Shown here: piece by piece, positions 7,201 through 44,148 of the stretch | Layout: each line of letters opens with the position of its first letter | How positions within the stretch are numbered: position 1 is the first letter of the stretch | Assembly (NCBI RefSeq): GCF_035594765.1 | Contig: NC_085843.1 | Span: 116,909,971-116,973,970, forward strand | DNA from: Anolis carolinensis | Lineage: Eukaryota | Direction of reading: 5' to 3' | Length of the DNA stretch: 64,000 nucleotides | Program-made: the position numbers and the translations under genes | The notes under the pieces: model-generated | Seen by the model: the letters and a program-made list of their open reading frames with translations, nothing else | The model's database searches: none | What the model was told of the DNA's origin: nothing

Positions 7201-7923
7201 TGTCACACCTCAGGTTAGCTTCACCTTGCTAAAGACACCAGGCTGCACACAGAACGTAGTCTTTTGTAGTTTATTAGGAAATAGGGAAAAGATAGTTCAT
7301 AAAAGGTAAACTTTCGGTTCCAAAAGATAGTTACAAAAACAAGGCTGTAAGAAACAAATCCATAGAAACATTAGACATGAAACAAGGTCCTTTCAAAAGA
7401 AGCCAAAGTCCCAGAAACGAGAATACATCCAGGCTACAAGATAATACAGGAGAGCAGACTTGGTTCTTGATTCAAGCGAGGAAATTGCTTTGATGAAGAT
7501 TTCCCTCTCAGCAGGCTGTTTTAATAGCATAACATGAAGGCATTTCTTTGCCCTTTGAACTCCCTCTTACTTGCTATTCTGAGACTTCTGCGCAACCCCC
7601 AAAATTCCAAATGACTAACCCGATTTAGAGAAGCAGCCTCATCGCTTTCAAGGCCACAGGGCTCATTAGTGTTATCAGGCTGAGGCTGGGAGCTGCTCTC
7701 CCTTTCTGCTTCTTGCACCTGAAAACCATTATCAGTAACAACATCATTTCTTCCTGTGGGAAAGCCTCCCTGCTCCTCATCTCCCACAGCAGGAACACTC
7801 TGCACCTGAATCCCATAATTCCCATCAGAGTCATCTGGAAACTCATCCTGAACCTGAATCCCATCATCTTGAAACTGCATCCCAGAATCCTCATCAGAGT
7901 CACACAAAGGCTGAGTCACAACA
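7201..7923 (-). mobile_element. Solo LTR (723 bp), probably Ty3/Gypsy
   Basis: 5-bp TSD CTTCT at 7196-7200 and 7924-7928; minus strand reads TGTTGTG...GTGACA; TATTAAAA near 7526-7519; AATAAA at 7275-7270. Confidence 0.85.
7521..7922 (-). CDS. U3-spanning open frame (133 aa, acidic, C-terminal RRSLRIASK); putative read-through tail of a retroelement ORF
   Basis: Open from LTR base 2 (T|GTT GTG ACT CAG CCT) to a stop inside the TATA-like box; same frame as in the other two LTRs. Confidence 0.45.
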   Translation of the reverse strand, partial: VVTQPLCDSDEDSGMQFQDDGIQVQDEFPDDSDGNYGIQVQSVPAVGDEEQGGFPTGRNDVVTDNGFQVQEAERESSSQPQPDNTNEPCGLESDEAASLNRVSHLEFWGLRRSLRIASKREFKGQRNAFMLCY

Positions 7924-9962
7924 CTTCTCCAGCTTCCAGCTTCCTGAGGGGATGCTCGATTCCGGCTACAAGGGGACCAGCTGCTTCATCATCCACTCTG
8001 AAGCCGACTTCCTCATTCCGTTCCACAGGCTGGTGGCAGTTTTATGGTGTCGTAAATTTAGTTAAATTAGCCTCCCCACATAGTGGTACCTAAATTTCCT
8101 ACTTGATAGATGCAACTATCTTTCAGGTTGCTTAGGTCAACAATGAGCAGGGGCTATATTTTATTTTAATTGTCGGGTGCTCATTCCGACATGAGCTGGC
8201 CTCGAACTAATGACCTCTTGATCATAGTGATTTATTGCAGCTGGCTACTAACCAGCCTGCACCACATCATCTGCATTATTGCAACTAGAATTAATTGTTC
8301 CCCCTTCTTTCTTACTTAACTGGCCTAAAAGTTAATTTATGTTGCAATAAGGATAAGAACGCATGAGGGATACAAATCAAATCAAATAAACAGATTGTCC
8401 ATTTGATCATGTCATTGAGTTTATTGTTGCAACCTCAAATGAAAGAATGTGCCTGTCATTGTATATCCTTTCTAAAATGTTTGTTTTGTGGATTGCACTA
8501 TGATGCAATAATATTGTGTCGTAATGAATGCAAAGCCTAAGAAATAATGCTAAAATAATATTGCAAGAAATTTATGTGTATTGGTCCCATGTAATATGTA
8601 GAATAGGAATAATGTGACTAGAAACAGAGTCGGAACAGCAGCGTGGGCTTGATTCAGCTTTGATCTTGATATGCCAAGGAAAATATCAATTGAATAGAAG
8701 TTTATCAAGAAAAGAACTTAGAAGAAAAACAGTGGAAAAAGAACATGTAGACACCTAGATACAATATATCTGTAATGAAAGCTCAATTGATTTCATTGTT
8801 GTTCTCTCTGTGATTTTAATACATGGGGAGTTGAGTCACAAGACCTCATAGCATCTTCACCAGGCAAGAGTTCTCATGATACTTTGGTAAAAAATCATTG
8901 CTGTTAAATGGTTAAAAGAATAATATGCATTTATAGTATTATTTTGACCTGTGGGAGCTTAAGCAGAACAAAAACAAATGGACTTCTTTGCTGACAATGT
9001 CTACTTGCTGCTTTCTTCTGTGATACTGATCTTCAAATTGTCTTTCTGTTCAGATAAGAAAGTTTCACTGGTTGATGAGACTCAAAACAGGCTTCCATGG
9101 TAAGTGATCAAATATGCTTATGTTTTAAAACCTACTGCAACGCACAAGGATTAGAAAAAAGCCAGGCTACTTTAAAAGTCAACAATCCTTCTGTTTAATC
9201 GCATGCATGAAATTGCATTTCTTAATCTACTGGAGAATCAAATGGCCTCTTCTGTCTCCTTGCATGCTTATGCTCACATGCTTTTCTGTAACATATGGGA
9301 GGTACATGGTCAGGATATTAAACCTTTGAAGAGCGCTGCTAAATACACAGAAACAAAGGAATTTCTTGCATATTGCTGAAATGCAACTTCCTAAATAGTA
9401 CAAAGAAGCTTTGTATTTCAGAGGTCAGATGCCAGAATATAGTGCATCATTCTGCTTGCAGCTACTTCCTGTCAGTAGCTGATAACGCACCCATTGATTT
9501 TATTTCCTCAGAAACAATTTACTTGCAGGAGGATGCTAATTTTTGCAGAAGACAGCTCCTTGGAGTTTTGTTGGTAGGAAAGTGCTGATGAACTGTGTGT
9601 TCTGTTGTTAGCATGAATTTAGACAAAGAAATAGGTGCTTTTCTACTTCTGATGAATACAGTTTAATTCTCATCCCTTTGTTTATTTCAATTTTAGCTCC
9701 TATCTTTGCTCCTAGAGGAAAGAGCATCCAAAATTGATCAAACCTACACGTTGTTTCATATCACCTGAAACTTGTATAATCATGCCAAACTTTATTAATA
9801 AGCACATCTAAGTTTGTGGAACTGATTTTTTTAAAAAAATCAAAGTATCACACAAACAAGGTTAACTCAGGAATTGCAAGTGTGCAGCAGGAAATGTATG
9901 AAACAATAATAAAAGGCTTCTAAATATGTATTAACTAATACTGAAGCTCTATACAGTGAGAG

Positions 9963-10232
9963 GTCCCAGGTTCAATCCCCGGGAGCGGCGTGAGCGGCCG
10001 CTGTTAGCTCCAGCTCCTGCCAACCTAGCAGTTCGAAAACATGCCGATGTGAGTAGATCAATAGGTACCGCTCCAGCAGGAAGGTAACGGCACTCCATGC
10101 AGTCATGCCGGCCACATGACCTTGGAGATGTCTACGGACAACCCCGTCTCTTCAGCTTAGAAATGGAGATGAGCACCAACCCCCAGAGTCAGACATGACT
10201 GGACTTAATGTCAGGGGAAAACCTTTACGTAC
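9963..10232 (+). mobile_element. Sauria SINE, 5'-truncated
   Basis: Diagnostic GAGTAGATCAATAGGTACCGC...CCCAGAGTCAGACATGACTGG...ACCTTT; 14-bp TSD CTATACAGTGAGAG at 9949-9962 and 10233-10246. Confidence 0.9.
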
Positions 10233-10253
10233 CTATACAGTGAGAGACTATGT

Positions 10254-10841
10254 GTTGTAGTTGTGCCAAGGGGCAGTTCTGGCACTACTGGTAAAATTGC
10301 TAGTAGGAGGAAAAGGGATAATGTTGAGCAGGTGTTTGATGAGGAACAGCAAGTAAAACGGGTTCGGGAAATACTTATGGCTCCTACTGAGGATGAAACG
10401 TTTGAAGGCTTCTCTAGTGAAGAGGACTCAATGCTGGAAGATGATGGGTTAACAGAAAGTAGAGGTCAACTCAGGAGCAAGAGTCAGATGAGGAAAGGGA
10501 AAGAAAGAAGGGAAAGAAAGGGAAAAAAGATTCCGGATATAATTACTGCTCCCATGGAAGATGAAACATTTGAGGGTTTTTCTGGGGATGATGGGTCTGA
10601 GAGTGGGATGGAAGAGGCTGCAGCTTGGACTCAAGTAAATGTGTGTGCAGCACCAGTTTCTGAGGGTGCATCAGAAGACTGGCATACTACTGGTACACCA
10701 GGGGCATGGGGAGATCTAAGTCTTGAACAAAGATGGAGTGATTGGAGGGCTGGTAGGCGAGGTTCACATATGAGATTGAGATCAGCTGTGGATAATGATG
10801 ACAGGGCGGAGGCCTCATCATCATCGGACTCCGAAGTGTAA
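10254..10841 (+). CDS. U3-encoded acidic polypeptide (195 aa) with two EDETFEGF motifs and MRLRSA
   Basis: Open from LTR base 2; homologous to the U3 frame at 42978-43394; the duplicated motif differs only at silent sites. Confidence 0.6.
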   Translation, partial: VVVVPRGSSGTTGKIASRRKRDNVEQVFDEEQQVKRVREILMAPTEDETFEGFSSEEDSMLEDDGLTESRGQLRSKSQMRKGKERRERKGKKIPDIITAPMEDETFEGFSGDDGSESGMEEAAAWTQVNVCAAPVSEGASEDWHTTGTPGAWGDLSLEQRWSDWRAGRRGSHMRLRSAVDNDDRAEASSSSDSEV

Positions 10842-10954
10842 GTTAAAAGTGGAGTTGAAAGTGAAGGTCCCTTGCAGAAGGCAAGGTGTCGTTTTTGGGA
10901 CATTGCTTTGTCGCTGCCTGTTCTCCTTGGGTCCTGGCTGTACAGCTTTGTTTT

Positions 10955-11390
10955 CCTGAATCCGGATTGACTCCTGATGACAGCATTCGTTTCTGCTTTG
11001 GCGTTCCTGACTTGGCATTTCTGGCTTGGCATTCCTGGCTTCCTCTGGCTCCTGGATCCAGTTTGACTCCTGATGGCAGCGTTCATTTCTGCTCTGACGT
11101 TCCTGACTTGGCGTTTCTGGCTTGGCGTTCCTGGCTTCATCTGGCTCCTGAATCCAGTTTGGCTCTTGATGGCAGCATTTGCTCCTGGCTTGGCAATTCC
11201 GACTTGGCATTTTTGGTTTGGCGTTTCTGGCTTCCACTGGCTACTGAATCCGGTCTGCTTCCTGACGACGGCAGCGTTTGCTTCTGACTTGGCGTTTCTG
11301 GCTCCTCTTTGGCTTCTGAATCTGGTCTGCTTCCTCATGACGACATTGCTTGCTCCTGGCTTGGCGATTTTGGGTCCCCTTTTGGCTTTT
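10955..11390 (+). repeat. 96-bp tandem repeat (about 4.5 copies) inside the LTR, downstream of the TATA box
   Basis: Unit starts (C)CTGAATCC recur at 10955, 11051, 11147 and 11243, then at 11315 after a 72-bp unit. Confidence 0.85.
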
Positions 11391-12402
11391 GACAACAGTA
11401 TCGTTTGCACTCATTATTTGAGAGCGTTTGGCTCTTCCCTGACTCTCTGCGCTACAGCATAGCATGGCGCTTGTTCCAGTGAACGTTTTGGTTGCATTTG
11501 AACCGGATTATCAAGCTAGATAATCCAGGTTATTTTTTTGTTCTTGCTTGGTGCCTTTTCTTGAAGCAAAGACGTTTACTTTTGGTTGAAACACTGAAGT
11601 TAAGTGTTTCTGAGTTCAAAATATCATTTAATAAACATTTGTTAACTTTACTTATTGTGTGTGGCTCTTTAAGAGGGGTCTGTATCATGACACTATGTTT
11701 GAGCATAACAATGGGAAGCATCTACTAAAAATGTGTAGGATTGCCTGGTCCCATTTGGTAGTGACATATTCATTGATCATACCATCCAGGGTACCTGTTT
11801 TTTTCTGATGGCCTTCACATCCATGGACAGGAACTAGTCTCCCTCCACCTTAGAGCAGTACCTATATATACCCATAAAACCTCCTTCAGATTGATATAAT
11901 GTGTATGTATATTGATACTAATATATGTATAACTTGAGCAGGTGTGGCTGGCATGCACACTGTCATTTTAGAGATTGAGCCATTATGTACTTTATTGTAT
12001 TTGTATTCAATAGAAGAATAAGGCTTGAGAAATAATTTGATCCTATTCATCAGTAGGAGCATAGTGTCAAGACTGAAGGAAGTCATAGTCTCACTCTATT
12101 CTGCTTTGGTCAGATCTCACCTGGAATACTGTGTCAAATCCTGGGCACCAGAATTCAAGGAGGATATTCACAAGCTGGAAAGTGTCCAGAGATGGATGAT
12201 CAAAATGATCAAAGGTCTGGAAGCCAAGCCCTGTGAGGAATGGCTTAGGGAACTGAGTATGTTTAGCTTGAAGAGGAGAAGGCTGAGAGGGGACATGATA
12301 GCCATGTTAAAATATTTGAAAGGATGCAGGGCCGGTCCAACAATGGAGGCCGTTTAAGCGGCCGCTTCGGGCGCACGTCAAGGGGGGCGCTGTTGAGGCT
12401 CC

Positions 12403-13570
12403 CTCTCGCACTCCTCGGCCCACTCGCACATCTCTCGCACTCGGCCCACTCGCGGCCCTCTCGCACTCGGCTCAATCGCGCCCCTCTCGCACTCGGCCCA
12501 CTCACGCCTCTCTCACACTCGGCCCACTCACGCATCTCTCTCACTCGGCCCACTCGCGCCCCTCTCGCACTCGGCCCACTCACGCATCTCTCTCACTCGG
12601 CCCACTCACGCCCCTCTCGCACTCGGCCCACTCACGCATCTCTCTCACTCGGCCCACTCATGCATCTCTCTCACTCGGCCCACTCACGCCCCTCTCGCAC
12701 TCGGCCCACTCGCACCTCTCTCTCACTCGGCCCACTCGCGCCTCTCTCTCACTCGGCCCACTCACACCCCTCTCGCACTCGGCCCACTCACGCCTCTCTC
12801 TCACTCGTCCCACTCACGCCCCTCTCGCACTCAGCCCACTCACGCCTCTCTCGCACTCGGCCCACTCGCGCCTCTCTCTCACTCGGCCTACTCGCGCCTC
12901 TCTCTCACTCAGCCCACTCACTCCCCTCTCGCACTCGGCCCACTCACGCATCTCTCTCACTCGGCCCACTCATGCCCCTCTCGCACTCGGCCCACTCACG
13001 CCTCTCTCGCACTCGGCCCACTCACGCCCCTCTCGCACTCGGCCCACTCACGCATCTCTCTCACTCGGCCCACTCACGCCCCTCTCGCACTCGGCCCACT
13101 TGCGCCTCTCTCTCACTCGTCCCACTCATGCCCCTCTCGCACTCGGCCCACTCACGCCTCTCTCGCACTCGGCCAACTCGCGCCTCTCTCTCACTCGGCC
13201 TACTCGCGCCTCTCTCTCACTCGGCCCACTCACTCCCCTCTCGCACTCGTCCCACTTGCGCCTCTCTCTCACTCGTCCCACTCACGCCCCTCTTGCACTC
13301 GGCCCACTCACACCTCTCTCGCACTCGGCCCACTCACGCCCCTCTCGCACTCGGCCCACTCACGCCTCTCTCTCACTCGGCCTACTCGCGCCTCTCTCTC
13401 ACTCGGCCCACTCACTCCCCTCTCGCACTCGGCCCACTCACGCATCTCTCTCACTCGGCCCACTCACGCCCCTCTCGCACTCGGCCCACTCACGCCTCTC
13501 TCGCACTCGGCCCACTCACGCCCCTCTCGCATTCGGCCCACTCACGCATCTCTCTCACTCGGCCCTCTCG
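12403..13570. repeat. 26-bp C-rich minisatellite, about 44 copies
   Basis: Unit approximately ACTCGGCCCACTC(A/G)CGC(C/A)(C/T)CTCTC(G/T)C. Confidence 0.95.
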
Positions 13571-13950
13571 CCCTTGCAGCCCTCTTGCCCCTGAACAAGA
13601 CCTGAGGCCAGGCCTCTGGGCCTGCTGCTCCACCTGCACCCTTCCTGGATTCCTCCCGCAATGCCCGGCAGCCCTCCGTGGCTGGAAGGAGCTCTGGCAG
13701 GTCGAGCAGGCCTGTGCCCCTGCCATGCACCTCCTTGGGGACCCTCTCAGCCATGAAGACGGGGCAGGTAGGAACCCGTCCCTGTTCCCAGCATTTCGCC
13801 AGGCATGTCTCCAGGGCAGGCCTGGGCCAACTTGGCAACTGAGGGGGGAAAAGGGGCCTGAGGCTGGGTTGCTGCAGGTTTTTCAGCTGCCTGGCCATGT
13901 TCCAGATGCTGGAACATGTGGGCCTACTCCTAGGATTTATAGTTTCCTAA

Positions 13951-14378
13951 GGCCCCTTCTTCACAGCCATAGAAGACAGATTATCAAGGCAGATAATCCA
14001 CATTTTCTGCTTTGAACCAGATTATATGCATCCACACAGCCATATAATCCAGTTCAGAGCAGATAGTCTGGATTTTATATGGCAGGGTATGGGTTCTTCT
14101 ACATAACCATATAATTGAGATTATGAAGGCAGATAATCCAGGTCATATGCACTGAACCGGATTATATGCATCTACACAGCCATATAATCCAGTTCAGAGC
14201 AGATAGTCTGGATCTTATATGGCAGGGTATGGGTTCTTCTACATAACCATATAATTCAGATTATCAACGCAGATAATCCACATTATCTGCCTTGAACTGG
14301 GTTATCTGAGTCTACACTGCCATATAATCCAGTTCAAAGCAGATAACCTGCATTTTATATGGCAATACAGAAAGGGCC
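13951..14378. mobile_element. PIF/Harbinger-type MITE with an internal 120-bp tandem duplication
   Basis: GGCCCCTTCT...AGAAAGGGCC flanked by TAA; repeated GCAGATAATCC/GGATTAT motifs. Confidence 0.7.
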
Positions 14379-14722
14379 TAAGGGTATATTGTAGTGTATA
14401 TTGTAGTGGTGTACTTCAGAGGGATGCATATATCTCACCAAAGGGCAGCTGCACTTTGGAATTAATGCAGTTTGACTCCAATTTCATTGCCATGGCTCAA
14501 TGCTATGAAACCCTGGGAATTGTAGTTTTATAAGGTCTTTAAACCTTCTCTGCCAAATAGTTTAGATGCCTCACCGAACTATAACTCCCAGGATTCCATA
14601 GCATTGAGCCGTGGCAGTGAAAGTGGAGTCAAACTATGTTAATTCCACGGTGCCTCACTTCTTCCAATGGAGAAATAAAGATACAAGTGCCAGTTAAGTC
14701 CAGTGGATTTCTTTATTCATAC

Positions 14723-15121
14723 CAGGGGTCCCCAAACTTTTTAAACAGGGGCCAGTTCACGATCCTTCGGACCGTTGGAGGGCCAGACTATAGTTGGCCA
14801 CCGAGCAATAATAAATAAATATATAAATAAATAATAATAACAATAACAATAAAAAAGAGGGTTGGAAGACACCCTTTGGGCCATTGAGTCCAATCCCCTT
14901 CTGCTTTGTGCATCGAAAGCACAAGCAAAGCACCCCTGACAGATGACCACCCAGCGTCAATGTGAAGAAGAAGAAGAAGAAGAAGAAGAAGAAGAAGAAG
15001 AAGAAGAAGAAGAAGAAAGAGGTTTGGAAGAGACCCCTTGGGCCATTTAGTCCAACCCCCTTCTGCCTGTGTGCACCAAAAGCACAAGCAAAGCATCCCT
15101 GATAGATGGCCACCCAGCCTC

Positions 15122-15167
<46 letters not shown>

Positions 15168-15268
15168 GGATTGGAAGAGACCCCTTGGGCCATTTAGTTC
15201 AACCCCCTTCTGCCTGTGTGCACCAAAAGCACAAGCAAAGCATCCCTGATAGATGGCCACCCAGCCTC

Positions 15269-15320
<52 letters not shown>

Positions 15321-15421
15321 GGATTGGAAGAGACCCCTTGGGCCATTTAGTCCAACTACCTTCTGCCTCTGTGCACCAAAAGCACAAGCAAAGCATCCCT
15401 GATAGATGGCCACCCAGCCTC

Positions 15422-15470
<49 letters not shown>

Positions 15471-15597
15471 GTTGTAAGAGAAGAAGAGACCCCTTGGGTT
15501 ACTTAGCCCAACCCCCTTCTGCCCTTGTGCCGTGGGGCTGGATAAATGGCTTCGATGGGCCGCATCCGGCCCCCGGGCCTTAGTTTGGGGACCCCTG
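14723..15597. mobile_element. Nested hAT MITE carrying tandem CR1-tail/microsatellite units
   Basis: TIR CAGGGGTCCCCAAACT...AGTTTGGGGACCCCTG; TSD ATTCATAC at 14715-14722 and 15598-15605. Confidence 0.9.
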
Positions 15598-15686
15598 ATT
15601 CATACCATATGGAGAGGGGCAGATTTCTCGCCCTTTTCATGATATTGTTTAAACTTCCACTCTATGTCTAATTTTTGTTTTGTGTA

Positions 15687-16018
15687 AGGTAAAGGTAAAG
15701 GTTTCCCATGACGTTAAGTCCAGTCATGTCTGACTCTGGGGGTTGGTGCTCATCTCCATTTCTAAGCCAAAGAGCCAGTGTTGTCCGTAGACACCTCCAA
15801 GGTCATGTGGCCAGCATGACTGCATGGAGCACCGTTACCTTCCCGCCGGAAGTTGTACCTATTGATCTACTCACATTGGCATGTTTTCGAACTACTAGGT
15901 TGGCAAAAGCTGGAGCTAACAGCGGGCGCTCATTTCGCTCCCGGGATTTGAACCTGGGACCTTTCGGTCTGCAAGTTCAGCAGCTCAGTGCTTTAACACA
16001 CTTCGCTACCAGGGCTCC
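15687..16018 (-). mobile_element. Full-length Sauria SINE
   Basis: (AAAGGT)n tail on the plus strand, GGAGCCC head; 15-bp TSD TTTTTGTTTTGTGTA. Confidence 0.92.
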
Positions 16019-16152
16019 TTTTTGTTTTGTGTATTTTATGGAAATATGTTTCCATATGTATATTTTACGGAGTGTTTTTAAATTATTATGTGTTCTAGCA
16101 ATGTTGTCAACCGTCTTGAGCGGGTAAGAAATAAAATTATCATTATCATTAT

Positions 16153-16415
16153 TGAGTTGCTGTGCATTTTCTGGGCTGTCTGGCCATGCTCCAGAAGCAT
16201 TCTCTCCTGACATTTCACCCACATCTATGGCAGGCATCCTCAGAGGTTGTGAGGTTGAGGCAAGTGTGAATGTTGCAGTTGGCCACCTTGATTAGCATTG
16301 AATGTCCCTCACATATTCATAGCTGGCTGCTTCCTGCCTGAGGGAATCTTTGTTGGGTGGTGTTAGCTGGCCCTGATTGTTTCATGTCTGGAATTCCCCT
16401 GTTTTTGAGTGTTCT
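16153..16415 (-). mobile_element. Penelope-like element terminal-repeat fragment with a decayed hammerhead motif
   Basis: Minus strand CCTCTGAGGATGCCTGCCATAGATGTGGGTGAAATGTCAGG; homologous to 18583-18948 and 30857-31070. Confidence 0.7.
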
Positions 16416-18388: not shown

Positions 18389-18424
<36 letters not shown>

Positions 18425-18426
<2 letters not shown>

Positions 18427-18948: not shown

Positions 18949-20510
18949 AACCACAGTATCCATTCAAGTTCATGTAGCGTAGTATGGACTGGAGACCTGT
19001 ATTGGGGGGAGGGAGGGTGCGAATCTGGGCCCCTGGGAGCAGCCGAGGACGGGCCTGGCCCACACCCCCTCGCATCCCGGGCCTCTTCCTTCCTCTTCCT
19101 TTTGTTATTTAAACTATATATTGTGAAATTATGGTGTGTTTTTTTTCATGCGTGTTCTGTGTTCAAGATAGGGAGACCAAAGAGGAAAAGCAAGGGAGGG
19201 ACGGAGGCCCCAACACTTCCGGCTCCCATGCGAACTCCCCCTTGTGTGCCTTGGAGGGTGGAGCATGCGCACTGGCTCTCCCTTTCTCTATGGCTCTTTT
19301 CAGGTCGCTTGGGAACCCGAAGTGCCTCCTCCCTTTGCCTTTGTGTCCAAGAAGGAGAGAAGGACGTTGCAAGGTTTGCATTGAGGGTGTTTCTCTGGTG
19401 GGTTTGGCTTGGAAGGGGGCTCATTAAGGCCCAATTAATTAATGCACTGAGCTGAGGCGAGGCGGCGGCGGCGGCCATTTCCCCCCTCCGTCTTCCTCCT
19501 CCTCCTCGGCCTCCTTCCCCCTCGCCCCCTCCCATTGGCTGAGCCTCCCATTGGCTGAGGGGCAAAAGGAAAGGAGTTTGGGTGATTTGCAAAAGCTTTT
19601 TTTTCTTTTCGAAAAAAACGAAGAAATAAGAAAAAACGGCCTCTCGCGATTCGAAACTGCGATATCCAGACGTGTGGACAACCAAGGTTCGATATTGCTT
19701 CAAAACAATCGAAAAAAACGAATCAATAACGGTAAACGGGGAAAACGAATTATTTGAGCAAGCCTACTCTTTACTGTCTGCTCATGGTGAACAAATCGAA
19801 GTATGGTGACCTTGTTACCTTATTGATCCATGTGATGCAGAAGGCCAAAACAAGTTTAAGAGGTTTAATGTGCTCAGAATAACATTTACTCAGCTGCCTA
19901 ACGAATCAATGGGAATGAGCCAATTCTCACCCAATTTAATTCTGAAAGGTAGTGGGGGGAATCATATACTTGCATTTAGCTAGTTTTGGTATAGCTGACA
20001 TAGCAGTTTTTCAAGTTGTATTTTTTTCTTTAAAACTTACCACTTTTCTAAAGCCTTCCACCTAACCATAACCCCAGGGTCCTCACATTCAGCCAAAGTA
20101 AAAACCTTTAAGTAAATGTTAAGTCCTATACAGTGAAGATTGGCTCAAGATTAAATTGCACAAGAGTAAGAGAGTTAATGGAGAAACAGTTTATCTGATT
20201 TTGTTAGTGTTACTCATGCTGTATCTTAAAAATTGATAGATTAAATGAATCAATCAACATCCCCACAAACTTTCTAGTTTCCCTTCCTTCCCATGTTACT
20301 CTCCTCTTCATATTGTTTTGTTTTCTTATCTCTCCCCTTACTGCAAAAGCAACCAAGCAACATGTATTTATTGAATTTATACCCTGTCTCTATCTGAAAG
20401 AAATGAACTGAAGCCCTGGGACTCAGTATGCATGTGAAAGGTGAGAGTGCAGTTATAATTTAGTACATTAAAAATTTAAAAAGAAGACCAGAGAATGCAG
20501 TTTCAGCATT

Positions 20511-31219: not shown

Positions 31220-31273
<54 letters not shown>

Positions 31274-32632: not shown

Positions 32633-32955
32633 CAGTAGAGTCTCACTTATCCAACACTCGCTTATCCAACGTTCTGGATTATCCAACGCATTTTTGTAGT
32701 CAGTGTTTTCAATGTATCGTGATATTTTGGTGCTAAATTCGTAAATACAGTAATTACTACATAGCATTACTGCGTATTGAACTACTTTTTCTGTCAAATT
32801 TGTTGTATAACATGATGTTTTGGTGCTTAATTTGTAAAATCATAACCTAATTTGATGTTTAATAAGCTTTTCCTTAATGCCTCCTTATAATCCAACATAT
32901 TCGCTTATCCAACATTCTGCCAGCCCGTTTATGTTGGATAAGTGAGATTCTACTG
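32633..32955. mobile_element. Tc1/mariner-pogo MITE
   Basis: TIR CAGTAGAGTCTCACTTATCCAAC / GTTGGATAAGTGAGATTCTACTG; TA TSD. Confidence 0.92.
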
Positions 32956-33061
32956 TACATTGCTGCTGGGGAAATCTATCCAATTCCCAACTACCATAAG
33001 AAATTGTTCTAATCCATGCTAATTAAAAGTCCTGGCATTTTTGTCCTGCAAGCCCTGACAC

Positions 33062-33329
33062 TTTTTTGTGTCAAGAGTGACTTGAGAAACTACAAGTCGC
33101 TTCTGGTGTGAGAGAATTGGCCATCTGCAAGGATGTTGCCCGAGGGATGCCCGGATGTTTTGATGTTTTTACCATCCTTGTGGGAGGATTCTCTCATGTC
33201 CCCACATGGAGCTGGAGTTGTTAGTGGGAGCTCAACCGTGCTCTCCCCGTGTTGAATTTGAACCAACAACCTTCAAGTCATCAGTCCTGCCAGCACAAGG
33301 GTTTAGCCCACTGCACCACTGGGGGCTCC
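33062..33329 (-). mobile_element. tRNA-derived A-tailed squamate SINE, full length
   Basis: GGAGCCCCCAGTGGTGCAGTGG head with A/B boxes and an A tail on the minus strand. Confidence 0.85.
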
Positions 33330-34705: not shown

Positions 34706-35077
34706 ACCATATATACTCAAATATAAGTTGACCTCATGTATAAGTCAAGAGCAGGCTTTGGGGACAAAGTGATGGATTTTGATATGACCCATGGATAATT
34801 TAAGGGTCATTGCACAGAAGGGATAAGCACCCATGCCAGCTCAGGGGGCCAGCAGTCTTTGGCAGCTACCACTATTTTGCTGCCTACCTAGGCATTCAAA
34901 AAGATCAGAAGCAGCACCACCATGAAAGGAATAGAGAGGGTTGGTACTTATTGGAAGTTTTCCATTCTACTCAGAGAAGGTTTAAGGTACAGTACTCACT
35001 CAGACCTATGGATAAGTCAACCCAGGTTTCTTAGATCGATTTTCTGACTAAAATTTCTAGACTTATACATAAGTATA
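34706..35077 (+). mobile_element. Degraded pogo/Tc2-type MITE
   Basis: TA|CCATATATACTCAAATATAAG...GACTTATACATAAGTATA. Confidence 0.6.
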
Positions 35078-35517
35078 AAGGACACATATGAAACATGTTT
35101 GTAGACCACATTTCTAGAGTCACAGCACTAGGTAAATTTCAGCCCCTTTGATGACGTATTTTCCCATTGCTCTATTTGCATGTAATATCCAAAATTCTGA
35201 GCCCATTCCACCATGTACTCTTTATCTTATCCCATTTCCAGATTAGGTTTTAACAAAAGTAGATTCATTTTTGCAATCATATGTTCAGCAGCAGAACACA
35301 ATTGTAATTCAAATTCAGATGTGTTCTCTTGAAAACTATAAATATTTTTATCCTTCTTAAATTTTTCTTTTTTTTTTATTTTTTTTTTATAAATGTTTTT
35401 TTATTATTATACAATTATTGGTTCTATTACATTTTATACAGCACACTCTTTTATAGTTTGCTTAAACATTTTCACCCCACCACGGTGCTCCCCTCCCCCC
35501 GTCTCAAGCCACAATTC

Positions 35518-38500
35518 TTACATATCATCTGTCCAAAACCTCATTTCCTCTTGTGACGGTAACTTTCCTTCCTTGTTTTTTAAACCTTTTACAACAAATT
35601 TTCCCCACACAGCATCATAATCGCTTTGTTTCCATATACCTTTTTTAACCTTTAATATACATGTTAGTTTATCATTTATTGCTAATTTCCATGCTTCTTT
35701 ATACCACTCCTCTATTTGTATGTTCATTTCTTTTTTCCAATTCCTTGCTATAAGTAATCTTGCTATTGTTACTAGATTTGTTATCGCATCTTTCTCCTCC
35801 TTTTTCCATTGTTTATTATTATATAATGATAATAATGCTATGCTAGGACTTTTATCAATTTTCATATTCATTATATCTTCTATTTCTCTAAAAACTTTCC
35901 CCCAAAATTTGTTTACATATTTGCATTGCCACCACATGTGTATATAAGTTCCTGGTTCTTGGCACCCTCTCCAGCAATTTTTTGAATTATTTTTATTCAT
36001 ATATGCTATTCTTACTGGTGTCAGATACCACTTCCATATTAACTTGTAGTAATTTTCTTTAACCCGTATTGATAAATTTTTTAAGTGTCTTTGTCCCCAT
36101 AACTGTTGCCATTCTATTTCGCTTATTTTTATCCCTAAGTCTTCTTCCCAAGACTCCTTAAGGGTATTCTTATTTATTTTCCCCTCCTTCGTTTCGATTA
36201 ATATCTTATAAATTCTACTAATTATACCTCTCAAGTTTTCCTGTTCCTCTACAGCCCTTCCCTTCTGTATTGTTAGCTCAAATTGACTAAGTTGGCTTCC
36301 ATTTCTATTGTTTTTTTCCCAATTTTTAAACCATTGTTCTAATTGTATACAGTGGAACCATGTCAATTTTATTTCTTTAAACTCTTCCAACATCATTTCC
36401 TTCTTCATTCTCACCTTCAGCCAATCCTCTATCCTATCTAATTTATTCTCCCTTAATTTTTTATCCATTACTTTTTTTAAATTTTTAGGGAATTTTTTTT
36501 CCATCACTATTGGGGTTATGATTGACCCCTCCCCTATTAACTTCCTCCTATATTTATTCCACACTTCTAATATATTGCTCAACATTGGGTTTCTAATTTC
36601 CCTCATTTCTTTTTTAGTAAACTGTTTAAAAAATATATTCCAAATTTCATCCTCCACTTTTCCTGAATCATTACTAAGCCAATCTATTCCCTCTCTTTTA
36701 ACCATTCCTTCTATCACCCAGCTTAATCTGCTTGCTTCATAATATTTTTTAATATTAGGTAGTGCTAGTCCTCCCTCTTTTTGCGATCTATACCATAACT
36801 GTTTAGTTAATCTATTTCTTTTACTTCCATTACAATACTTGTTAATCATTTGTTGCCATCTGTTTAGTTCTTCTTCTGTGATTTGAAGTGGTAGCATTCT
36901 AAATATAAAATTTATCTTTGGAAGTATTTTCATTTTTACTAATGCTATTCTTCCAAACCAGGATAGGCGTATGTCTTCATATTCTATTAATTTTTTCTGA
37001 ACCTCTTTCCTTAATGTTACTACATTTAGTTCTTCCATTTTTTTTAAATCCTTTGTTATTAATATTCCTAAGTATTTTAATTCATTCTTAATTCTTATTC
37101 CCATTTTACTCTGCTCTATAAAATCTTTCTCTTCTTCCTTTGTATAATTTATTAACATCATTTCTGACTTATTCCAATTAACTTGTAATCCTGTCGTTTT
37201 CCCAAATATCTCCAAATGTTCTTTTATTTTGTCCATTTTCTCTATTATATTTTCTATAAATAGCAATGTATCGTCAGCAAATAAGCTCACCTTATGTTTC
37301 TCCTCTTTTCCTAGCCCCTCTAGATTCTTATCATTCCTTATACCGTTTGCAAACATTTCTATCACCATAGCAAATAATATCGGCGACAAAGGGCACCCTT
37401 GCCTCGTTCCTCTGGACACTTTTATTTCCTTAGTCACTCCATCATTTATAGTTATCTCTGCTGAATTCCTTGAATAAAATTGTTCTAAGATTCCTTTTAT
37501 TCTATTTCCCATTCCGAATTTATTCAGGATTTCCCTTAATGCCTCCCATTCCACACAATCAAACGCTTTAAAAATATCTAGTGATAATATCCCTGCTTTT
37601 TCCTTCCCCTCTTTAGCCAAATAAATTTTTTTTAGTACTCTCCCTATCAAATTTGACATTAGTCTTCCCTTCACAAACCCACACTGATCTTTTTTTATAT
37701 ACTTATACATGCATTTATTCATTCTATTAGCTATTATCGCAGACAGAATTTTTGCGTCCTGATTAACTAACGATATGGGCCTATATGACCCCGGGTCTGT
37801 TAAATCTTTATCAGGTTTGGGTATTAATATTATTAGTGATTTCCTCCATGATTCTGGTATTTTATCTCCCTCCATTATCCCATTATACATTTTTAATAAT
37901 TTTGGAGTTAAAACTTCTCTGAAGCTTTTATAATATTCTGTCCCTAGACCATCCAGGCCTGGAGCTTTCCCCACTTTTAATTTCTTAATAACTTCCTCTA
38001 TTTCTATCCTCTTAATGGGTTGTTCCAATAGCTCTTTATCCCTCTCCTCCAGCTTGCACTCCCAATTTTCCTCCACATATTTCCTAATTACTTCTATAGA
38101 GCTAGCTTTAGTTTGATATAATTCTTTATAAAATTCTTCAAATACCTTCAGTTTTTCTTTCATAGTTCTACATAATTTACCTGTTTTATCTTTTATCATA
38201 TTTATCATTCCTTCCATTTTCTTTTTTTGTGTTGATTTGGCTAGCATCTTGGAATTCCTATCACTAAACTCAAAGTATTCCCTCCTTAAATAAATTAAAT
38301 TCTCTTGTACTTCATCTATTTCCATTTTATCCAGTTCCTCTTTTTTTGCTCTCAGCCTTGCATAAGTTCGTATATCTCTCTTTATTACATATGTTTTTTC
38401 GATCTCTTCTATTTCTCTTTCTAAATTCCTTTTCCTTTCTTCTTGCCTTTTTTTTAGATTAATTGTCTCTTTTATGCATAACCCTCTAGTCACTGCTTTC

Positions 38501-39375
38501 ATGGTGTCCCATAGAACTCCTTTTGTCACCCCCTTTTCATTAAAGCCCCATATTTCTTGCCATTCTACTTGCATTCTGTCTACTATCTCTTTATAATTCA
38601 ATATTTTCGTATTTAACCTCCACCTCTTCATTTTGTCATAATCACATTTCAGCACCAACTCAATCGATACCAGAGCATGATCCGAAATCTTAATTATCCC
38701 AATATCAGCATTTAACACTTTACTTAACATATTTTTGGAGACAAAAATATAATCTATTCTTGTATACACCTTATGCACCGATGAATAATATGTATATCTG
38801 CTTTCATTCCCTTTTACCAATCTCCACACATCCTTCAGTTGCCATTTATTCATTACTCTACTTAAGTCCGTTATTTCGATATTTCTTGTTTTTGATGTTA
38901 ACATTGTTTTATCCTTCTTTGGGTCCATATAACAATTACAATCTCCTCCAAATATTACATTTTGTTGGTGATAATTCTCTATTTGCTCTAATACTTTTTC
39001 GTAAAATTCTTGCTGTTTAACATTTGGTGCATATACATTTACTAATACATATTTTTCTTCCCCTATTTCACCATATATTATTATGTATCTTCCCTCTTCA
39101 TCTTTCAATACCTTATTTATACCCAAATTGCATTTCTTTGCTATTATTATAGCTACACCTCTTGACTTTGATGACCCAAAAGATTTCTCATAATTCCTTA
39201 TCCAGCTCGACTTTAGTTCATTTGAGCCCAGTTTATTCTGATGCGTTTCCTGTAGGAAGATGACATCCGCCGCGTCCTTCTTCAGTAGGGCTTCAATCCG
39301 CCTTCTCTTAATTACCGTCCCCAACCCTCTCACATTAAGTGTTGAAATTCTTAATTTATGAGACATCATTTCCAT
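35518..39375 (-). CDS. L1 ORF2p (APE endonuclease, reverse transcriptase, CCHC motif), 1285 aa
   Basis: LNVRGL, LQETH, GGDCN, RIDY, SDH; KAPGLDG, YRPISL, KAFD, QGCPLSP, FADD; CWRGC...HMWWQC. Confidence 0.97.
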   Translation of the reverse strand: MEMMSHKLRISTLNVRGLGTVIKRRRIEALLKKDAADVIFLQETHQNKLGSNELKSSWIRNYEKSFGSSKSRGVAIIIAKKCNLGINKVLKDEEGRYIIIYGEIGEEKYVLVNVYAPNVKQQEFYEKVLEQIENYHQQNVIFGGDCNCYMDPKKDKTMLTSKTRNIEITDLSRVMNKWQLKDVWRLVKGNESRYTYYSSVHKVYTRIDYIFVSKNMLSKVLNADIGIIKISDHALVSIELVLKCDYDKMKRWRLNTKILNYKEIVDRMQVEWQEIWGFNEKGVTKGVLWDTMKAVTRGLCIKETINLKKRQEERKRNLEREIEEIEKTYVIKRDIRTYARLRAKKEELDKMEIDEVQENLIYLRREYFEFSDRNSKMLAKSTQKKKMEGMINMIKDKTGKLCRTMKEKLKVFEEFYKELYQTKASSIEVIRKYVEENWECKLEERDKELLEQPIKRIEIEEVIKKLKVGKAPGLDGLGTEYYKSFREVLTPKLLKMYNGIMEGDKIPESWRKSLIILIPKPDKDLTDPGSYRPISLVNQDAKILSAIIANRMNKCMYKYIKKDQCGFVKGRLMSNLIGRVLKKIYLAKEGKEKAGILSLDIFKAFDCVEWEALREILNKFGMGNRIKGILEQFYSRNSAEITINDGVTKEIKVSRGTRQGCPLSPILFAMVIEMFANGIRNDKNLEGLGKEEKHKVSLFADDTLLFIENIIEKMDKIKEHLEIFGKTTGLQVNWNKSEMMLINYTKEEEKDFIEQSKMGIRIKNELKYLGILITKDLKKMEELNVVTLRKEVQKKLIEYEDIRLSWFGRIALVKMKILPKINFIFRMLPLQITEEELNRWQQMINKYCNGSKRNRLTKQLWYRSQKEGGLALPNIKKYYEASRLSWVIEGMVKREGIDWLSNDSGKVEDEIWNIFFKQFTKKEMREIRNPMLSNILEVWNKYRRKLIGEGSIITPIVMEKKFPKNLKKVMDKKLRENKLDRIEDWLKVRMKKEMMLEEFKEIKLTWFHCIQLEQWFKNWEKNNRNGSQLSQFELTIQKGRAVEEQENLRGIISRIYKILIETKEGKINKNTLKESWEEDLGIKISEIEWQQLWGQRHLKNLSIRVKENYYKLIWKWYLTPVRIAYMNKNNSKNCWRGCQEPGTYIHMWWQCKYVNKFWGKVFREIEDIMNMKIDKSPSIALLSLYNNKQWKKEEKDAITNLVTIARLLIARNWKKEMNIQIEEWYKEAWKLAINDKLTCILKVKKGIWKQSDYDAVWGKFVVKGLKNKEGKLPSQEEMRFWTDDM

Positions 39376-39661
39376 TTCCCTTTAAAAGCTTTTTTGTGGC
39401 TTGAACCAATGTGAACCCTTGACCCTTACCCTCCCCTACCCTTGCCCACCCTTCCCCCCTCCTCCCCCTTGATCCCCCCCTTCCCTCATTCCCCCCTTCC
39501 TCCCCTTCCATTCTTCGGGACTCCTCGTCCCAATCATGGCCCCCGGCCTTCCCAATTGGGGAGGGGGAAGGCGAAGTCATCCCATGGCCCAGAGTCTCCC
39601 TCCCCCCGAGTGCTCATTTTAAATTCAATAATAAATTTAATTGCAGTGTTACGCTTTCTTC

Positions 39662-40909
39662 TTACATCCCGATTCCTCCAGTGGCGCCAAATAATTCCTC
39701 CGTTACTCCTGCTTCCGAACCCTTCTCCTCCTCCTCCTTTCGATCTCTCTCTTGTTTTCTTATTATACCGAGCTCCTCCAATAGTTGATGTCCTTGCTCC
39801 AATGAGTCTATTCTATATCTCTTGCCTTTCCATTGGAATTTGAGAAAGATAGGATATCCCCAAGTGTACAAAATTCCGGCCTTCATTAATTGGATCGTAA
39901 TAGGCTTCATTGAATATCTCCAATTCTTAGTTTCAGTACAATAGTCATTGAATATCTCCAATTTTGAGTCGCCCATCTTTAAATATTCTGGGTTCTTCTT
40001 TAATATTTTCATCAAATTTTCTTTCTTTACGAAGTTTTGAAATCGGATTATTATATTCCTAGGAATTATTTTATTTCTTCCACTCGGAAGGCGATGAACT
40101 CTCTCGATATCTAATTCTGACCAGTTTAATATCGGCGTGATCTTTTGCAACCACTTCAAAATCTCGGTTTTCAGATCTTCTTTCTTATTCCCTTCTGGGT
40201 AGTTTCTAATTATTGCGTTGTTTCTTCTTTGATTATCTTGCATATACACGAACTTTCTTTCCACATCTGAAAGCCTATTTTCATTTTTTTGCGTTTGTTG
40301 TTTGAGTACAAGTTGTTCCTGTTTATTTTTCCCGATTTCAGATTTATTTGTTTGTATCTCTCCATGTGCTGTTTTCAAACTTTCTCTTATTGTCTGAAAT
40401 TTTTCATCTGAGCTTTTCCTTTCTGCCTCCAATTGTGCTTTTATTTCTTTGTTGCTGGTCAGAATTTCTTGCTTCAAAACCTGGATCTCGCTCTTCCTCA
40501 TTTCTCTTTCTTTATCAAACATCAAATTCAAATTCAAATTCATTTCCTTTGTTTGTCTTTCACTCTCCTCTTTGATCAATTCCGCTATTTTATTTAACAA
40601 TTGGCCACTGCCCATTTCATTCCCCATTTCTTTCCTCTCTCTGCTCTCACTGCTTCCTTTTAGTTCTGCTGATAAACATGGCAGAGAGGTAGAAATGCCT
40701 CCTCCTCCTATTGCCCCCTCCGCTTGAGGGGGGGTCCGTTTTAATTGTTTCCCCTCCTTAATTGAGGTGGGGGGACTTCTTTTAACAATGCTCATTTCCT
40801 TGGGGATCTGAGAAACCCTTTCCAATCTAGAAAAAGATCTGTCCGAAGGCCTTGTGCGTGACCAAAGAGGATTTTTTGGGATATCCTGACTTTGTTTATT
40901 CCTTCTCAT
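39662..40909 (-). CDS. L1 ORF1p (coiled coil, RRM, CTD), up to 415 aa
   Basis: Coiled coil followed by RRNNAIIRNYPE, IERVHR, PRNIIIRF, IFNDY, WGYP. Confidence 0.93.
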   Translation of the reverse strand: MRRNKQSQDIPKNPLWSRTRPSDRSFSRLERVSQIPKEMSIVKRSPPTSIKEGKQLKRTPPQAEGAIGGGGISTSLPCLSAELKGSSESRERKEMGNEMGSGQLLNKIAELIKEESERQTKEMNLNLNLMFDKEREMRKSEIQVLKQEILTSNKEIKAQLEAERKSSDEKFQTIRESLKTAHGEIQTNKSEIGKNKQEQLVLKQQTQKNENRLSDVERKFVYMQDNQRRNNAIIRNYPEGNKKEDLKTEILKWLQKITPILNWSELDIERVHRLPSGRNKIIPRNIIIRFQNFVKKENLMKILKKNPEYLKMGDSKLEIFNDYCTETKNWRYSMKPITIQLMKAGILYTWGYPIFLKFQWKGKRYRIDSLEQGHQLLEELGIIRKQERDRKEEEEKGSEAGVTEELFGATGGIGM

Positions 40910-42976
40910 TCACCTCCCTTCAGTTGCTCCTTCCGTATTTATCAATTTTTTTTTTTTATAAGTACTTAGTTCCCCCTTTCGACGCAGTCCAAAAAAAAAA
41001 CAACCCTAGTACGCCTTGCAAGGCCTTGCAACATTATTGTAACATTATTTCCTTTGGAGCCTTTGGAACCAGGGGATTCGCTTTTAATCTGATGAGGAAA
41101 GCTCACTCCTTCCTCAAAGGAGGCTTCCAGATGATTATATTCAATCTTGCTAATTATTTTAATGCTTATTTGAGCTACAGACTATTTTTCTTCTCCGGCT
41201 TCGCACGCGTTCGCACTCATCATGTTACTTTCGCTTTTGCTTTCAGCCTGCTTTCAGCCTGCTTCGGCCAGCTTCCCCTCACTTCTGCCAAAGCTCATAA
41301 ATCAAAGCAATTAAGTGGTAATAGATTACCTTTTCAGGTTTCTTGTATGCTCAACACTCTCATCTCCCTTTTAATCCATAAAGATCCTTCCTCGATCCCT
41401 TTTTCACTGCTTTTCGCTTTGTTTTCTCAAGAGCTGAAAGGAAAGACGTCTTTACCCGGCCATAGCTGACTCCGCCTCCCCCTTCTTCTTAAATTTTTCA
41501 ACAATTTGTTGATAAGAAAACCACTGAAAGTTATGGCCTCCTTCAAATTAATTTTATACTTCTTTTGATCCTACTTCAAAAGATCTTGATAAGTTATCCA
41601 TCTTTCTGTACAGGTCATTCCCTGTCTATAACAAGCTTCTTGTGATGTAGTGCAAAGGCCCTGTTCTCCCATCCTATATAGTGAAGAGAAAGAGAAATGT
41701 CACTTGTTTAAAACTAGGTTTTTGTCCAAAAATATTTTTTGTTTGTTTTTGTGTTTTTGCTATGATGTATGCGCTAATAAAAAAAGAACCCAGCATCTAG
41801 ATAAAATGTTTATGCTTGTGCAATGAATTGTGTTTAAATAGACAATGTTGTTGGTGCAACCAACAGGAACATTTTCTCTGTTTCTCTCCTGAAGTTATAA
41901 ATTAATATTAATGTTATTTAAATAAACATCAGTTATTGAGAAAACTGAATTAATTTCAAATTCCTAGCTAGTACTTTAAGCTGAGTATAGGTCCTCATGC
42001 CTGATCTATATGAAAAAGCAGTAGCTTAGGGACAGAAGTTGCAATATGCATGGAAAAATGTATCAGTTTTACCTGCCAGCATCTGCAGGAAATCCTGGAA
42101 ATTGCTACTATTAAGTGTAGACAAAAGTGAGCTAGATGGACCAACAATTTGAGTAAATAGTAGCTCCCCTTTGACAGTATACAATAAATACTGTCACGAA
42201 AATGATACTTCATGCTTTTTTGGTTGTTTTTCTCTAAGAACAATCTGTTTTGATACTTGCAGAGTAGGATGAGACTGATATTAAGTCCACTTTCTTTCAG
42301 GAAAGAAAAAGCTCACTTCGAAACACAGAGAGTGATGAGAAGAAAAGTTGAACTATAATTTGCAATGCAATAAAGTCAGATGCAGAAAATTGGATGACTC
42401 ATCATTAAGAAAACCTGCCTATCCCACTTCAGGAGGCTGATATAGGAAGGAAATGTATGCATATTAAAAACCTGTATCATTGAGGTATGTTGATTGCCAC
42501 GTGACTTTCATGTGTGAATGTGCCCTCTCAGAACAAACTCCAATGCAACTCACAGATATGGCCTTTACAACCCTTTAATGAGTGGTTGTTAGTAGAGTTG
42601 CTTTGTTCACATAGCTAGGAACCAGCAAATGACAATTGGTTTAGTGGTGAAAAATCAAAATATGTAAATGTACATGATCCTGTTTATATAGCACAAGAGA
42701 ACATGACAAATTTCACATGCTTGTTCTTATTTACCTTTCTTCAAAGTTTATCTATGTGAGAATATCCATGGTATCTCTCACCTATGTGTGTATTGGCTTT
42801 GGAACGGTAGTTTTAGAAGATCTTTAGCCTTCTCTGTGAAAGAGTGATGGTACATCACCAAACTACACTCCCATGTAGACCTGATAAGATGTGTGCAGAT
42901 ATCGCCAAAGGGGAAGGCAGTCCATGCTGCTGCCAATCTTGTCGCAGGGTGACCAAGACATAACCCTTATCATTTT

Positions 42977-44148
42977 TGTTTTGGTTGAGCCTTCTGGCTC
43001 CGGTACTAGGAGACGTGGTCGTAAGACTCCTCGAGAGTCAGACTCTTTTGAGGAGCGTGAAAGGAAACGGCTCCGGGACTTATTTGCAGAACCAACAGAT
43101 GAAGACTCATTTGAGGGTTTTACCGAGGGAATGGAGGAAGAGATGGTTAGCTCAGAGGAGGATGACATGGAGTGGACTCGTGTGAGGGAGGATTTGGGTG
43201 TCACCGGCAATGATAGCATGGGAGACAATTGGCGGGTTGCAGGATCAGACCCATGGATGGGCTGGAGGGATGGAGCGGGATCCACAGCTGGGGATGCTGT
43301 GGGGCGTAGTCAAAGGTGTTTTAGCTCTGATGAGGATGATGATGATGAGGCACCTGGAATTAGGATAGCAGCTGATAGCGATGAGGAGTTATGAACTGGG
43401 ATAAAATGGGGTTTAGGATCAATGGCTAATTGCGTTGGGCAAGGTAATCTGGACGAACGCTTGGGCTCTTGTTGGGGAACTTCCGAAGACGGGTGTGATT
43501 CGTTGCTGGATACGTAAGTTACCAAGGACACTGGGCATAGACGGCGGGAGGAACTGTGTGGGGTTTTTCTGTACAACTTGTGTTTAATCTTGATAGTTTG
43601 GACCTCCGTCGTCTTTTTGACAGACATTAATTACCTACTCTGGATTGACGCTGGACTGACTGACTGACTACGACCCTGGACTATCCCTTCTGTGGCTATC
43701 GGTGGAACCTGTGGACGTCTGCACTTGGCTTTCGACCTTGGACCGGATTGGGACCCATGCTGACCGTCGTTACCCTGATTGATGTGCCTGGACCCGGATT
43801 TCGCTCGTTGCACGGAGGAGTAAACAGCCTGAGTTACTCATCTGTAGCTTTTGAGTAGCAGAGAGGAATCTGCTGCCAGTTTTTGTGTTCATTTTGACCT
43901 CTGTTTTCCAACTTTTGTTTGTTTAAATTGTCAGGCTGAAGTAAGCACTTTTGCTTTAACCCGGATTAAATTCCTGTTTAATCCGGTTGATCCTTTGGAA
44001 CCGTTTTAATTCAAACGGAGCTGTTTCTGTTACTTTTCACACTAAAGACAAGTGTTTGCTTAGTCCTTTGCTTCCTACGGGCATTTCTCAGTTCTGTAAC
44101 TTTAATAAACTGTGTTGTACTCTATTGGGTGGCGTTCTGTCTATGACA
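42977..44148 (+). mobile_element. Solo LTR (1172 bp), probably Ty3/Gypsy
   Basis: 5-bp TSD ATTTT at 42972-42976 and 44149-44153; TGTTTTG...ATGACA; GATAAAA at 43400; AATAAA at 44104-44109. Confidence 0.85.
42978..43394 (+). CDS. U3-encoded acidic polypeptide (138 aa) with DLFAEPTDEDSFEGF motif
   Basis: Open from LTR base 2 to just before the TATA-like box; aligns with the 10254-10841 peptide. Confidence 0.58.
   Translation, partial: VLVEPSGSGTRRRGRKTPRESDSFEERERKRLRDLFAEPTDEDSFEGFTEGMEEEMVSSEEDDMEWTRVREDLGVTGNDSMGDNWRVAGSDPWMGWRDGAGSTAGDAVGRSQRCFSSDEDDDDEAPGIRIAADSDEEL

Follow-up and report, generated by a model that had tools for sequence, protein, structure and literature searches.

The DNA analyzed here, hereafter the window, is a stretch of 64,000 nucleotides from the lizard Anolis carolinensis (contig NC_085843.1, positions 116,909,971 to 116,973,970). 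It carries three solo long terminal repeats (LTRs) of Gypsy retrotransposons, A, B and C, each with a reading frame that is open from nucleotide 2 of the LTR and occupies nearly all of its U3 region. An earlier note, made from the sequence of the window, had proposed that these frames encode either a long C-terminal tail of Pol/integrase or a spliced accessory protein. The features are given below with window positions and strand.

7201..7923, minus strand: solo LTR A, 723 bp, with TG...CA ends and the 5-bp target site duplication (TSD) CTTCT; chromodomain-bearing Gypsy family, with internal relatives L139/L159 and L162.
7521..7922, minus strand: U3 frame of LTR A, 133 codons plus stop; predicted integrase tail, placed after the chromodomain in full elements.
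7575..7595, minus strand: basic RRS-x-R-type motif near the end of tail A, common to chromodomain-bearing families.
10253..11692, plus strand: solo LTR B, 1440 bp, with TG...CA ends and TSD CTATG; chromodomain-less family, with internal relatives L075, L107 and L108.
10254..10841, plus strand: U3 frame of LTR B, 195 codons plus stop; predicted integrase tail.
10341..10430, plus strand: motif 1 of B, resembling a TND-interacting motif (TIM; TND, TFIIS N-terminal domain), with helix, acidic linker and FxGF at 10401-10412.
10509..10598, plus strand: TIM-like motif 2 of B, with FxGF at 10569-10580; the helix part is altered in the window copy.
10874..10884, plus strand: likely start of R in B, complementary to the primer site that follows the family-B 5′ LTR, with one mismatch, by eye.
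42977..44148, plus strand: solo LTR C, 1172 bp, with TG...CA ends and TSD ATTTT; young chromodomain-less family.
42978..43394, plus strand: U3 frame of LTR C, 138 codons plus stop; predicted integrase tail, with a TATA-like box at 43400-43406.
43050..43139, plus strand: TIM-like motif of C, with predicted helix, acidic linker and FxGF at 43110-43121.
43432..43442, plus strand: start of R in C, an exact 11-nt complement of the primer site (self-priming).
43514..43596, plus strand: 83-nt GT..AG intron in R of LTR C.

The three LTRs, each with its own TSD, lie where the earlier note had placed them, and its account of the frames was borne out: they run for 133, 195 and 138 codons and end at or just before the TATA-like box, the stop falling within the box in A (7519-7526) and a few bases 5′ of it in B and C. 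After shuffling of U3 (20,000 trials), a frame from nucleotide 2 stayed open in at most 0.035% of the cases (A, 0.025%; B, 0/20,000; C, 0.035%). The other two sense frames of U3 contain 19 and 3 stops in A, 25 and 9 in B, and 23 and 2 in C. With the U3/R border set by the self-priming site (see below), the tail frame covers about 92-95% of U3. The statement that no ATG stands at the start of the frames applies to A and B, which lack an early ATG, but not to family C, where most copies have an ATG at codon 2 that is lost in the window copy. Aspartate and glutamate make up 20-28% of the tails, and the encoded product is likely acidic and disordered. As the note had it, two of the three products are homologous (B versus C, blastp E 1e-6); between A and C no homology was detected. 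A Pfam search with the three tails returned no family, an ESM Atlas search with tail C gave low scores only and was uninformative, and a tail profile run against 1.84 billion representative sequences yielded four matches, three of them from Anolis.

A genome search with each LTR gave 1,325-2,569 candidates on a first look, 40 of which were scored. Most of the fetched copies were solo LTRs with the matching frame: 131-136 codons in 21 of 32 family-A rows, 191-195 codons in 16 of 25 family-B copies, and 138 codons in 26 of 30 family-C rows. Since these lengths recur in most copies of A, B and C, the open U3 frame is a family trait. The window copy of B departs from its family over about residues 71-91, as compensating frameshifts would give. 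A pair of A LTRs lying 8.9 kb apart proved to be a segmental duplication.

Internal sequence was reached from those copies that had a purine tract and no TSD. In family C, the junction from pol through the polypurine tract (PPT) to LTR base 2 was in frame in 30/30 internal copies, five of which are likely duplicates of each other, and 27/30 had no stop in the tail. An intact family-C pol has 1074 codons followed by the tail of 138, i.e., 1212 codons in all, and 38 of 150 family-C matches lay within frames of 1210-1216 codons, one of them flagged with an inner stop. The full family-C element has two LTRs, gag, and a pol with reverse transcriptase (RT), RNase H (RH), integrase (IN) and an SH3_Tf2-1/GPY-F module; no chromodomain was found in it. 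The junction was also in frame in 3/3 copies of family B, where the two copies with an intact end contained no chromodomain. For family A the first PPT pattern matched nothing; with a looser pattern there were 54 matches, and among the 50 that were fetched one was an internal element. The junction was in frame in 2/2 family-A copies, the tail following a proline-rich linker and a chromodomain, and no intact family-A element was recovered. The chromodomain was seen in the A internals by sequence, and in the sister family D by Pfam. UniRef proteins labelled 'Gypsy retrotransposon integrase-like protein 1' already include the C tail. At the DNA level pol thus runs in frame through the PPT into nucleotide 2 of the LTR in A, B and C, as the first of the two proposals had it, and we conclude that U3 almost certainly encodes a C-terminal tail of integrase.

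About 25-30 bases 3′ of the TATA-like box, the LTR contains the complement of the primer site. The complement is exact over 11 nt in C and spans 10 nt in the relatives D and E; the LTR of family A has a homologous priming site, and no 5′ LTR with its primer site was recovered for A. The location of the self-priming site fixes the U3/R border. The order Gag, then protease (PR)-RT-RH-IN with the GPY/F (SH3_Tf2-1) module, by which Tf1/sushi elements are recognized, was found here, and self-priming has been described for Tf1/Sushi elements (PMC6317226, available text). Judged by sequence, the three LTRs stem from self-priming Tf1/sushi-type Gypsy retrotransposons. Together with the 5-bp TSD, and with the chromodomain of A and its relatives, this organization is shared with the V-clade (Sushi-ichi, Amn), from which the lizard elements differ in the absence of a chromodomain in B and C and in tails of 85-205 residues, LTR-encoded, versus about 25 residues in the fish proteins compared. 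Of 56 aligned copies, 6 lack the R intron of LTR C precisely, the pattern expected if spliced RNA had been reverse transcribed. LTR B contains tandem 72/96-nt repeats 3′ of its promoter, and over these repeats runs an antisense frame of 259 codons (10631-11410, minus strand), which has no Pfam match and in which shared indels are mostly out of frame.

In a quick maximum-likelihood tree of 35 rows, built without named references (Sushi-ichi, Amn, Tf1) or a true outgroup, the lizard elements formed one clade (99), placed with chromodomain elements of fish, frogs and fungi. Families B and C were sisters (Shimodaira-Hasegawa-like approximate likelihood ratio test, 100) and joined a Podarcis element with a chromodomain and a long tail (98); family A, with rows less than 20% filled, grouped with other chromodomain families (99). 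In this tree the absence of the domain in B and C is derived, the Podarcis relative having a chromodomain. Chromodomain-less members of the Tf1/sushi clade are already known (PMC3601003). The median length after the chromodomain was 16.5 residues among 120 homologues, of which 78 were scored by a rough rule, and lizard and frog tails were longer than those of the fish relatives, whose LTR borders were inferred from protein alone. The short tails of the fish proteins have an S-P-x-F/Y end.

Selection on the frame was analyzed column by column, variants being counted relative to the most frequent codon; those shared by at least three copies, which come from active lineages, were split from single ones. 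With CpG-prone sites excluded, the ratio of nonsynonymous to synonymous change (dN/dS) of the shared variants was 0.55 in A (p 0.0012) and 0.27 in C (p 0.0006), and with CpG sites it was 0.57 (p 0.026) in B. The other sense frames gave 1.2-1.7 over the three families (1.2-1.4 for A and C) and the pol control 0.08. Pairwise estimates were 0.40 in A (most diverged pairs) and 0.18-0.30 in C (diverged pairs). Shared indels of family A were in frame in 13/19 cases in the tail versus 0/19 downstream (p 1e-5), and shared stops were absent from the tail frames of B and C. We conclude that: i) purifying selection acts on the tail frame in A and C, which upholds for these two families the expectation of a selected U3 frame, with B not significant at the codon level once CpG sites are left out; and ii) the tail is constrained, less strongly than the enzyme part of pol.

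Families B and C have in common a block composed of a charged helix, A/E-P-S/T, an acidic linker and FxGF. The earlier note had correctly spotted the conserved FEGF block; the chromodomain loss in B/C and a likeness to ligands of LEDGF had gone unremarked. We presumed that the block is LEDGF-ligand-like, and then tested this by profile search. The motif is present once in C and twice in B. Three copies (FEGF, FLGF, FVGF) occur in a B-related LTR family (L223-L247), known from LTRs alone, with a U3 frame of about 205 codons. Across the repeats x is E, L or V, and F, G and F are invariant. The linker has 8 residues, a spacing identical to that of JPO2 M1, with which the candidate helix residues also align. 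A TIM has been defined as a helix followed by an acidic linker of 8-16 residues and an optional FxGF (PMC9987994, available text).

The motif profiles were searched against 177,635 PDB sequences. A 7-row profile had two matches, the best being a fusion of the integrase-binding domain (IBD) of LEDGF with JPO2 M1 (6emo, E 0.066). A 12-row profile had three: JPO2 M1 (E 0.00096), an MLL1 peptide in third place (2msr, E 1.4) and, between them, an unrelated flagellar protein (E 1). The host has two zf-4CXXC_R1 genes, and 100 kb of their upstream sequence was searched with the same profile. The top matches outside LTRs were three motifs, two of them upstream of one gene and the third upstream of the other; from the likeness to JPO2 M1, we take these two genes for CDCA7L and CDCA7. 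Between the element motif and the host gene 22-40 of 69 bases are identical, which fits capture or convergence alike. In 122 pol proteins, FxGF followed the GPY/F module in six, five of them from lizards, and a chromodomain was recognized in none of the six. A single-sequence model of tail C contains one helix, just before the linker, at low confidence (mean predicted local distance difference test, pLDDT, of 40). In complex prediction, the C peptide paired with the IBD of anole LEDGF scored 0.35 versus 0.02 for the best control, a weak score, with contact agreement between runs of at least 81% and a partner pLDDT of 55-56; among benchmark pairs, 51 of the 78 solved ones and 2 of the 108 mismatched ones passed the mark used. 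From its sequence, the B/C tail appears to carry a close look-alike of the JPO2-type FxGF motif.

Three Podarcis muralis proteins from UniRef (P0119, P0122, P0123) have a degenerate chromodomain followed by an FQGF motif, apparently 5′ of the PPT. They lie on a branch separate from B and C, and by sequence an independent gain is possible.

These observations can be joined in a model. Genomic RNA would be translated into Pol including the tail, and the tail would be retained on mature integrase. The partner of the B/C motif would be the TND of LEDGF or HRP2, two proteins that recognize histone H3 di- or trimethylated at lysine 36 (H3K36me2/3) through their PWWP domain (PMC9987994, available text). 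The bound LEDGF or HRP2 could then tether the integration complex, standing in for the lost chromodomain, and the tether would steer insertion to H3K36me2/3 chromatin. Because U3 is copied to both LTRs, solo LTRs keep the frame as a passenger; there, upstream of the LTR's own start site, it is probably silent. On the sequence likeness set out above, we lean towards the view that the B/C tail tethers the integration complex to LEDGF/HRP2 through a JPO2-type FxGF mimic and so targets insertion. The wider proposal, to which we give about an even chance, is that a lizard Gypsy lineage has exchanged a heterochromatin-reading chromodomain for a mimic of the JPO2/MLL1 motif, LTR-encoded and multiplied in tandem, and hijacks LEDGF/HRP2 so as to enter transcribed chromatin, a Podarcis lineage maybe having done so separately; U3 would then be a fast-evolving cassette of host-mimicking motifs.

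Several results weigh against tethering to LEDGF/HRP2 and the constraint on which it builds. FxGF is absent from family A, and the motif cannot account for all three tails. The 12-row profile was assembled after the first match was known, its rows being added by homology among element copies, and a PDB search with the single C motif of the window gave chance matches only, with JPO2 not among them. Complex scores of 0.60 or below were obtained for 5 of the 78 solved complexes and for all four passing mismatches, i.e., low passes are more often wrong; moreover, the benchmark does not cover disordered peptides, and since a similar complex has already been solved, the score of 0.35 may reflect memory. 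In family B, dN/dS without CpG sites was 0.68 (p 0.17, not significant) and pairwise values of 0.59-0.61 fell inside the range of the non-coding controls, some frames of which dipped to 0.62-0.71 (p 0.004-0.05), making the test a loose one. Chromosome-class counts, finally, fail to separate FxGF from chromodomain families. Family-A matches were enriched outside C1-C6 (22/54 versus 15% of bases), family-C internals were depleted there (12/150), and B and C were not enriched on small contigs; since family E, which has a chromodomain, is also low outside C1-C6 (1/31), chromosome class is no test of targeting.

Many TNDs recognize TIMs (PMC9987994, available text), and the tail could be a selected integrase extension whose FxGF binds another TND protein (TFIIS, ELOA, MED26, IWS1 or PNUTS), or which serves nuclear retention or promoter regulation. 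The weak complex score, the lack of a signal in the chromosome-class counts and the other conserved blocks of the tail (Trp-rich and basic) would all suit such a role. We nevertheless regard it as unlikely: in the same source FxGF is characteristic of, and essential for, partners of LEDGF/HRP2, the gain of the motif coincides with the loss of the chromodomain, and integrase C-terminal tails that bind a chromatin protein are a known targeting route, Ty5 and Moloney murine leukemia virus (MoMLV) tethering by a short peptide of this kind (PMC4176367, available text).

Tethering to LEDGF/HRP2 also has to be weighed against tolerated read-through, in which no pol stop precedes the LTR, a purine-rich U3 drifts with only harmful sequence selected out, and FxGF arises by chance in acidic low-complexity sequence. 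Short read-through tails of about 25 residues are common in the fish relatives, the tail dN/dS of 0.3-0.6 is far higher than that of pol, selection in B is not significant, and 1.5% of shuffled C tails contain one FxGF. If read-through were merely tolerated, however, a premature stop would be harmless, yet B and C have no shared stops and the shared indels of A are in frame. Two FxGF as in B were found in 0/100,000 shuffles (the copies are duplicates and not independent), F, G and F are retained across diverged repeats, and the best PDB match is a LEDGF ligand, so that we consider drift very improbable.

Mouse mammary tumor virus (MMTV) Sag and lentiviral Nef have coding sequence in U3 as separate genes with their own messages. 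The lizard U3 frame is, unlike these, the end of pol, without an early start codon of its own in A and B, and the contigs searched gave no evidence of a message separate from pol. The plant CRM chromoviruses are a closer analogy than the parallel drawn in the earlier note. A separate Sag/Nef-like protein made from spliced RNA or from the codon-2 ATG of C, or a tail cleaved off and acting alone, is highly unlikely, for although that ATG is present in most C copies, database gene models begin at it (P0246) or join the tail to other open reading frames (P0244), and the element RNA is spliced elsewhere (the R intron), in every family the tail frame continues that of pol, an early ATG is lacking in A and B, U3 is upstream of the LTR's start site, and splicing gained no support, with no canonical joint into U3 listed in four runs (contigs only, RNA status guessed).

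Plant CRM chromoviruses are a known case of integrase tails encoded in the LTR. In CRM group A the integrase C-terminus is encoded in the 3′ LTR, likewise in the lizard families, and the CR motif (CHDCR) was gained with chromodomain loss (PMC6317226, available text); since the CR motif is also LTR-encoded, the architecture has a precedent in another clade. Group A elements are from plants, tRNA-Met primed and centromeric, whereas the lizard elements are from a vertebrate and self-priming, and thus resemble CRM in working without being members. Unlike in CRM, the lizard tail fills nearly all of U3 and some families also keep a chromodomain; the lizard motif resembles a known host ligand, whereas the CRM papers identify no partner of CR. 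The TIMs of JPO2/CDCA7L, MLL1, POGZ and IWS1, ligands of the LEDGF/HRP2 IBD, share with the lizard motif an acidic S/T linker and FxGF, along with a helix bearing a hydrophobic anchor (F/V/L/I) that is predicted in the lizard one at low confidence, but sit in host proteins, whereas the lizard one is predicted in a retroelement; POGZ is itself a domesticated transposase that binds LEDGF (PMC4176367, available text). Binding of a host chromatin protein by integrase for site choice is also the principle of lentiviral IN-LEDGF, MoMLV IN-BET (bromodomain and extraterminal) and Ty5 IN-Sir4. HIV integrase uses a structurally prearranged site and not an unstructured motif (PMC10854676), and the available part of a Ty3 preprint mentions only a topological likeness to LEDGF. 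In a survey of LTR structure that includes the Sushi clade the terms 'ORF' and 'reading frame' do not occur (PMC3601003). Our search, with Repbase and most subscription journals outside it, found no earlier report of a LEDGF/HRP2-motif mimic in a retrotransposon or of a U3-filling integrase tail in squamates.

If tethering to LEDGF/HRP2 is true, a non-viral retroelement would be using the HIV cofactor LEDGF through linear-motif mimicry. The plant CR motif would then have a counterpart in a vertebrate, one whose host partner can be named, and the insertion-site choice of vertebrate Gypsy elements would become testable by a short peptide assay and, from annotations that already exist, by comparing chromodomain and FxGF families in one genome. 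Repeat libraries that separate LTR from internal sequence cut away the integrase end, and thousands of solo-LTR candidates in the genome contain a coding frame, one that is already being drawn into gene models by predictors.

The RRSxR-type motif at the end of tail A is common to other chromodomain families and to Podarcis and frog proteins. PDB searches with the end of tail A and with an RRSxR profile gave no matches, and the idea that RRSxR is a nucleosome acidic-patch motif was dropped as unsupported. The basic motif of family A might, as a weak inference, be an auxiliary chromatin or nuclear-import signal. Further chromodomain-bearing families (L160-L188, L211, L212, L218) have their own, unrelated U3 tails of about 85-155 codons, mostly ending in an RRSxR-type motif, and the tail of family E covers just about two thirds of U3. 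RRSxRL tail ends were seen in Podarcis and frog proteins (P0007, P0030, P0016, P0020, P0032, P0034, P0064).

Elsewhere in the window, an L1-like long interspersed element at 35518-40909 (minus strand) has two open frames, one of 415 codons and one of 1287 codons with endonuclease and RT. A GC-rich tandem array at 12310-13700 is built of about 43 or more 26-bp units, and a GC-richer stretch at 19146-19763 contains a possible first exon on the minus strand, with a poly-Ala start. Among the other sequences recovered, L219 resembles LEDGF/PSIP1, has no introns and contains one stop; it is probably a processed pseudogene.

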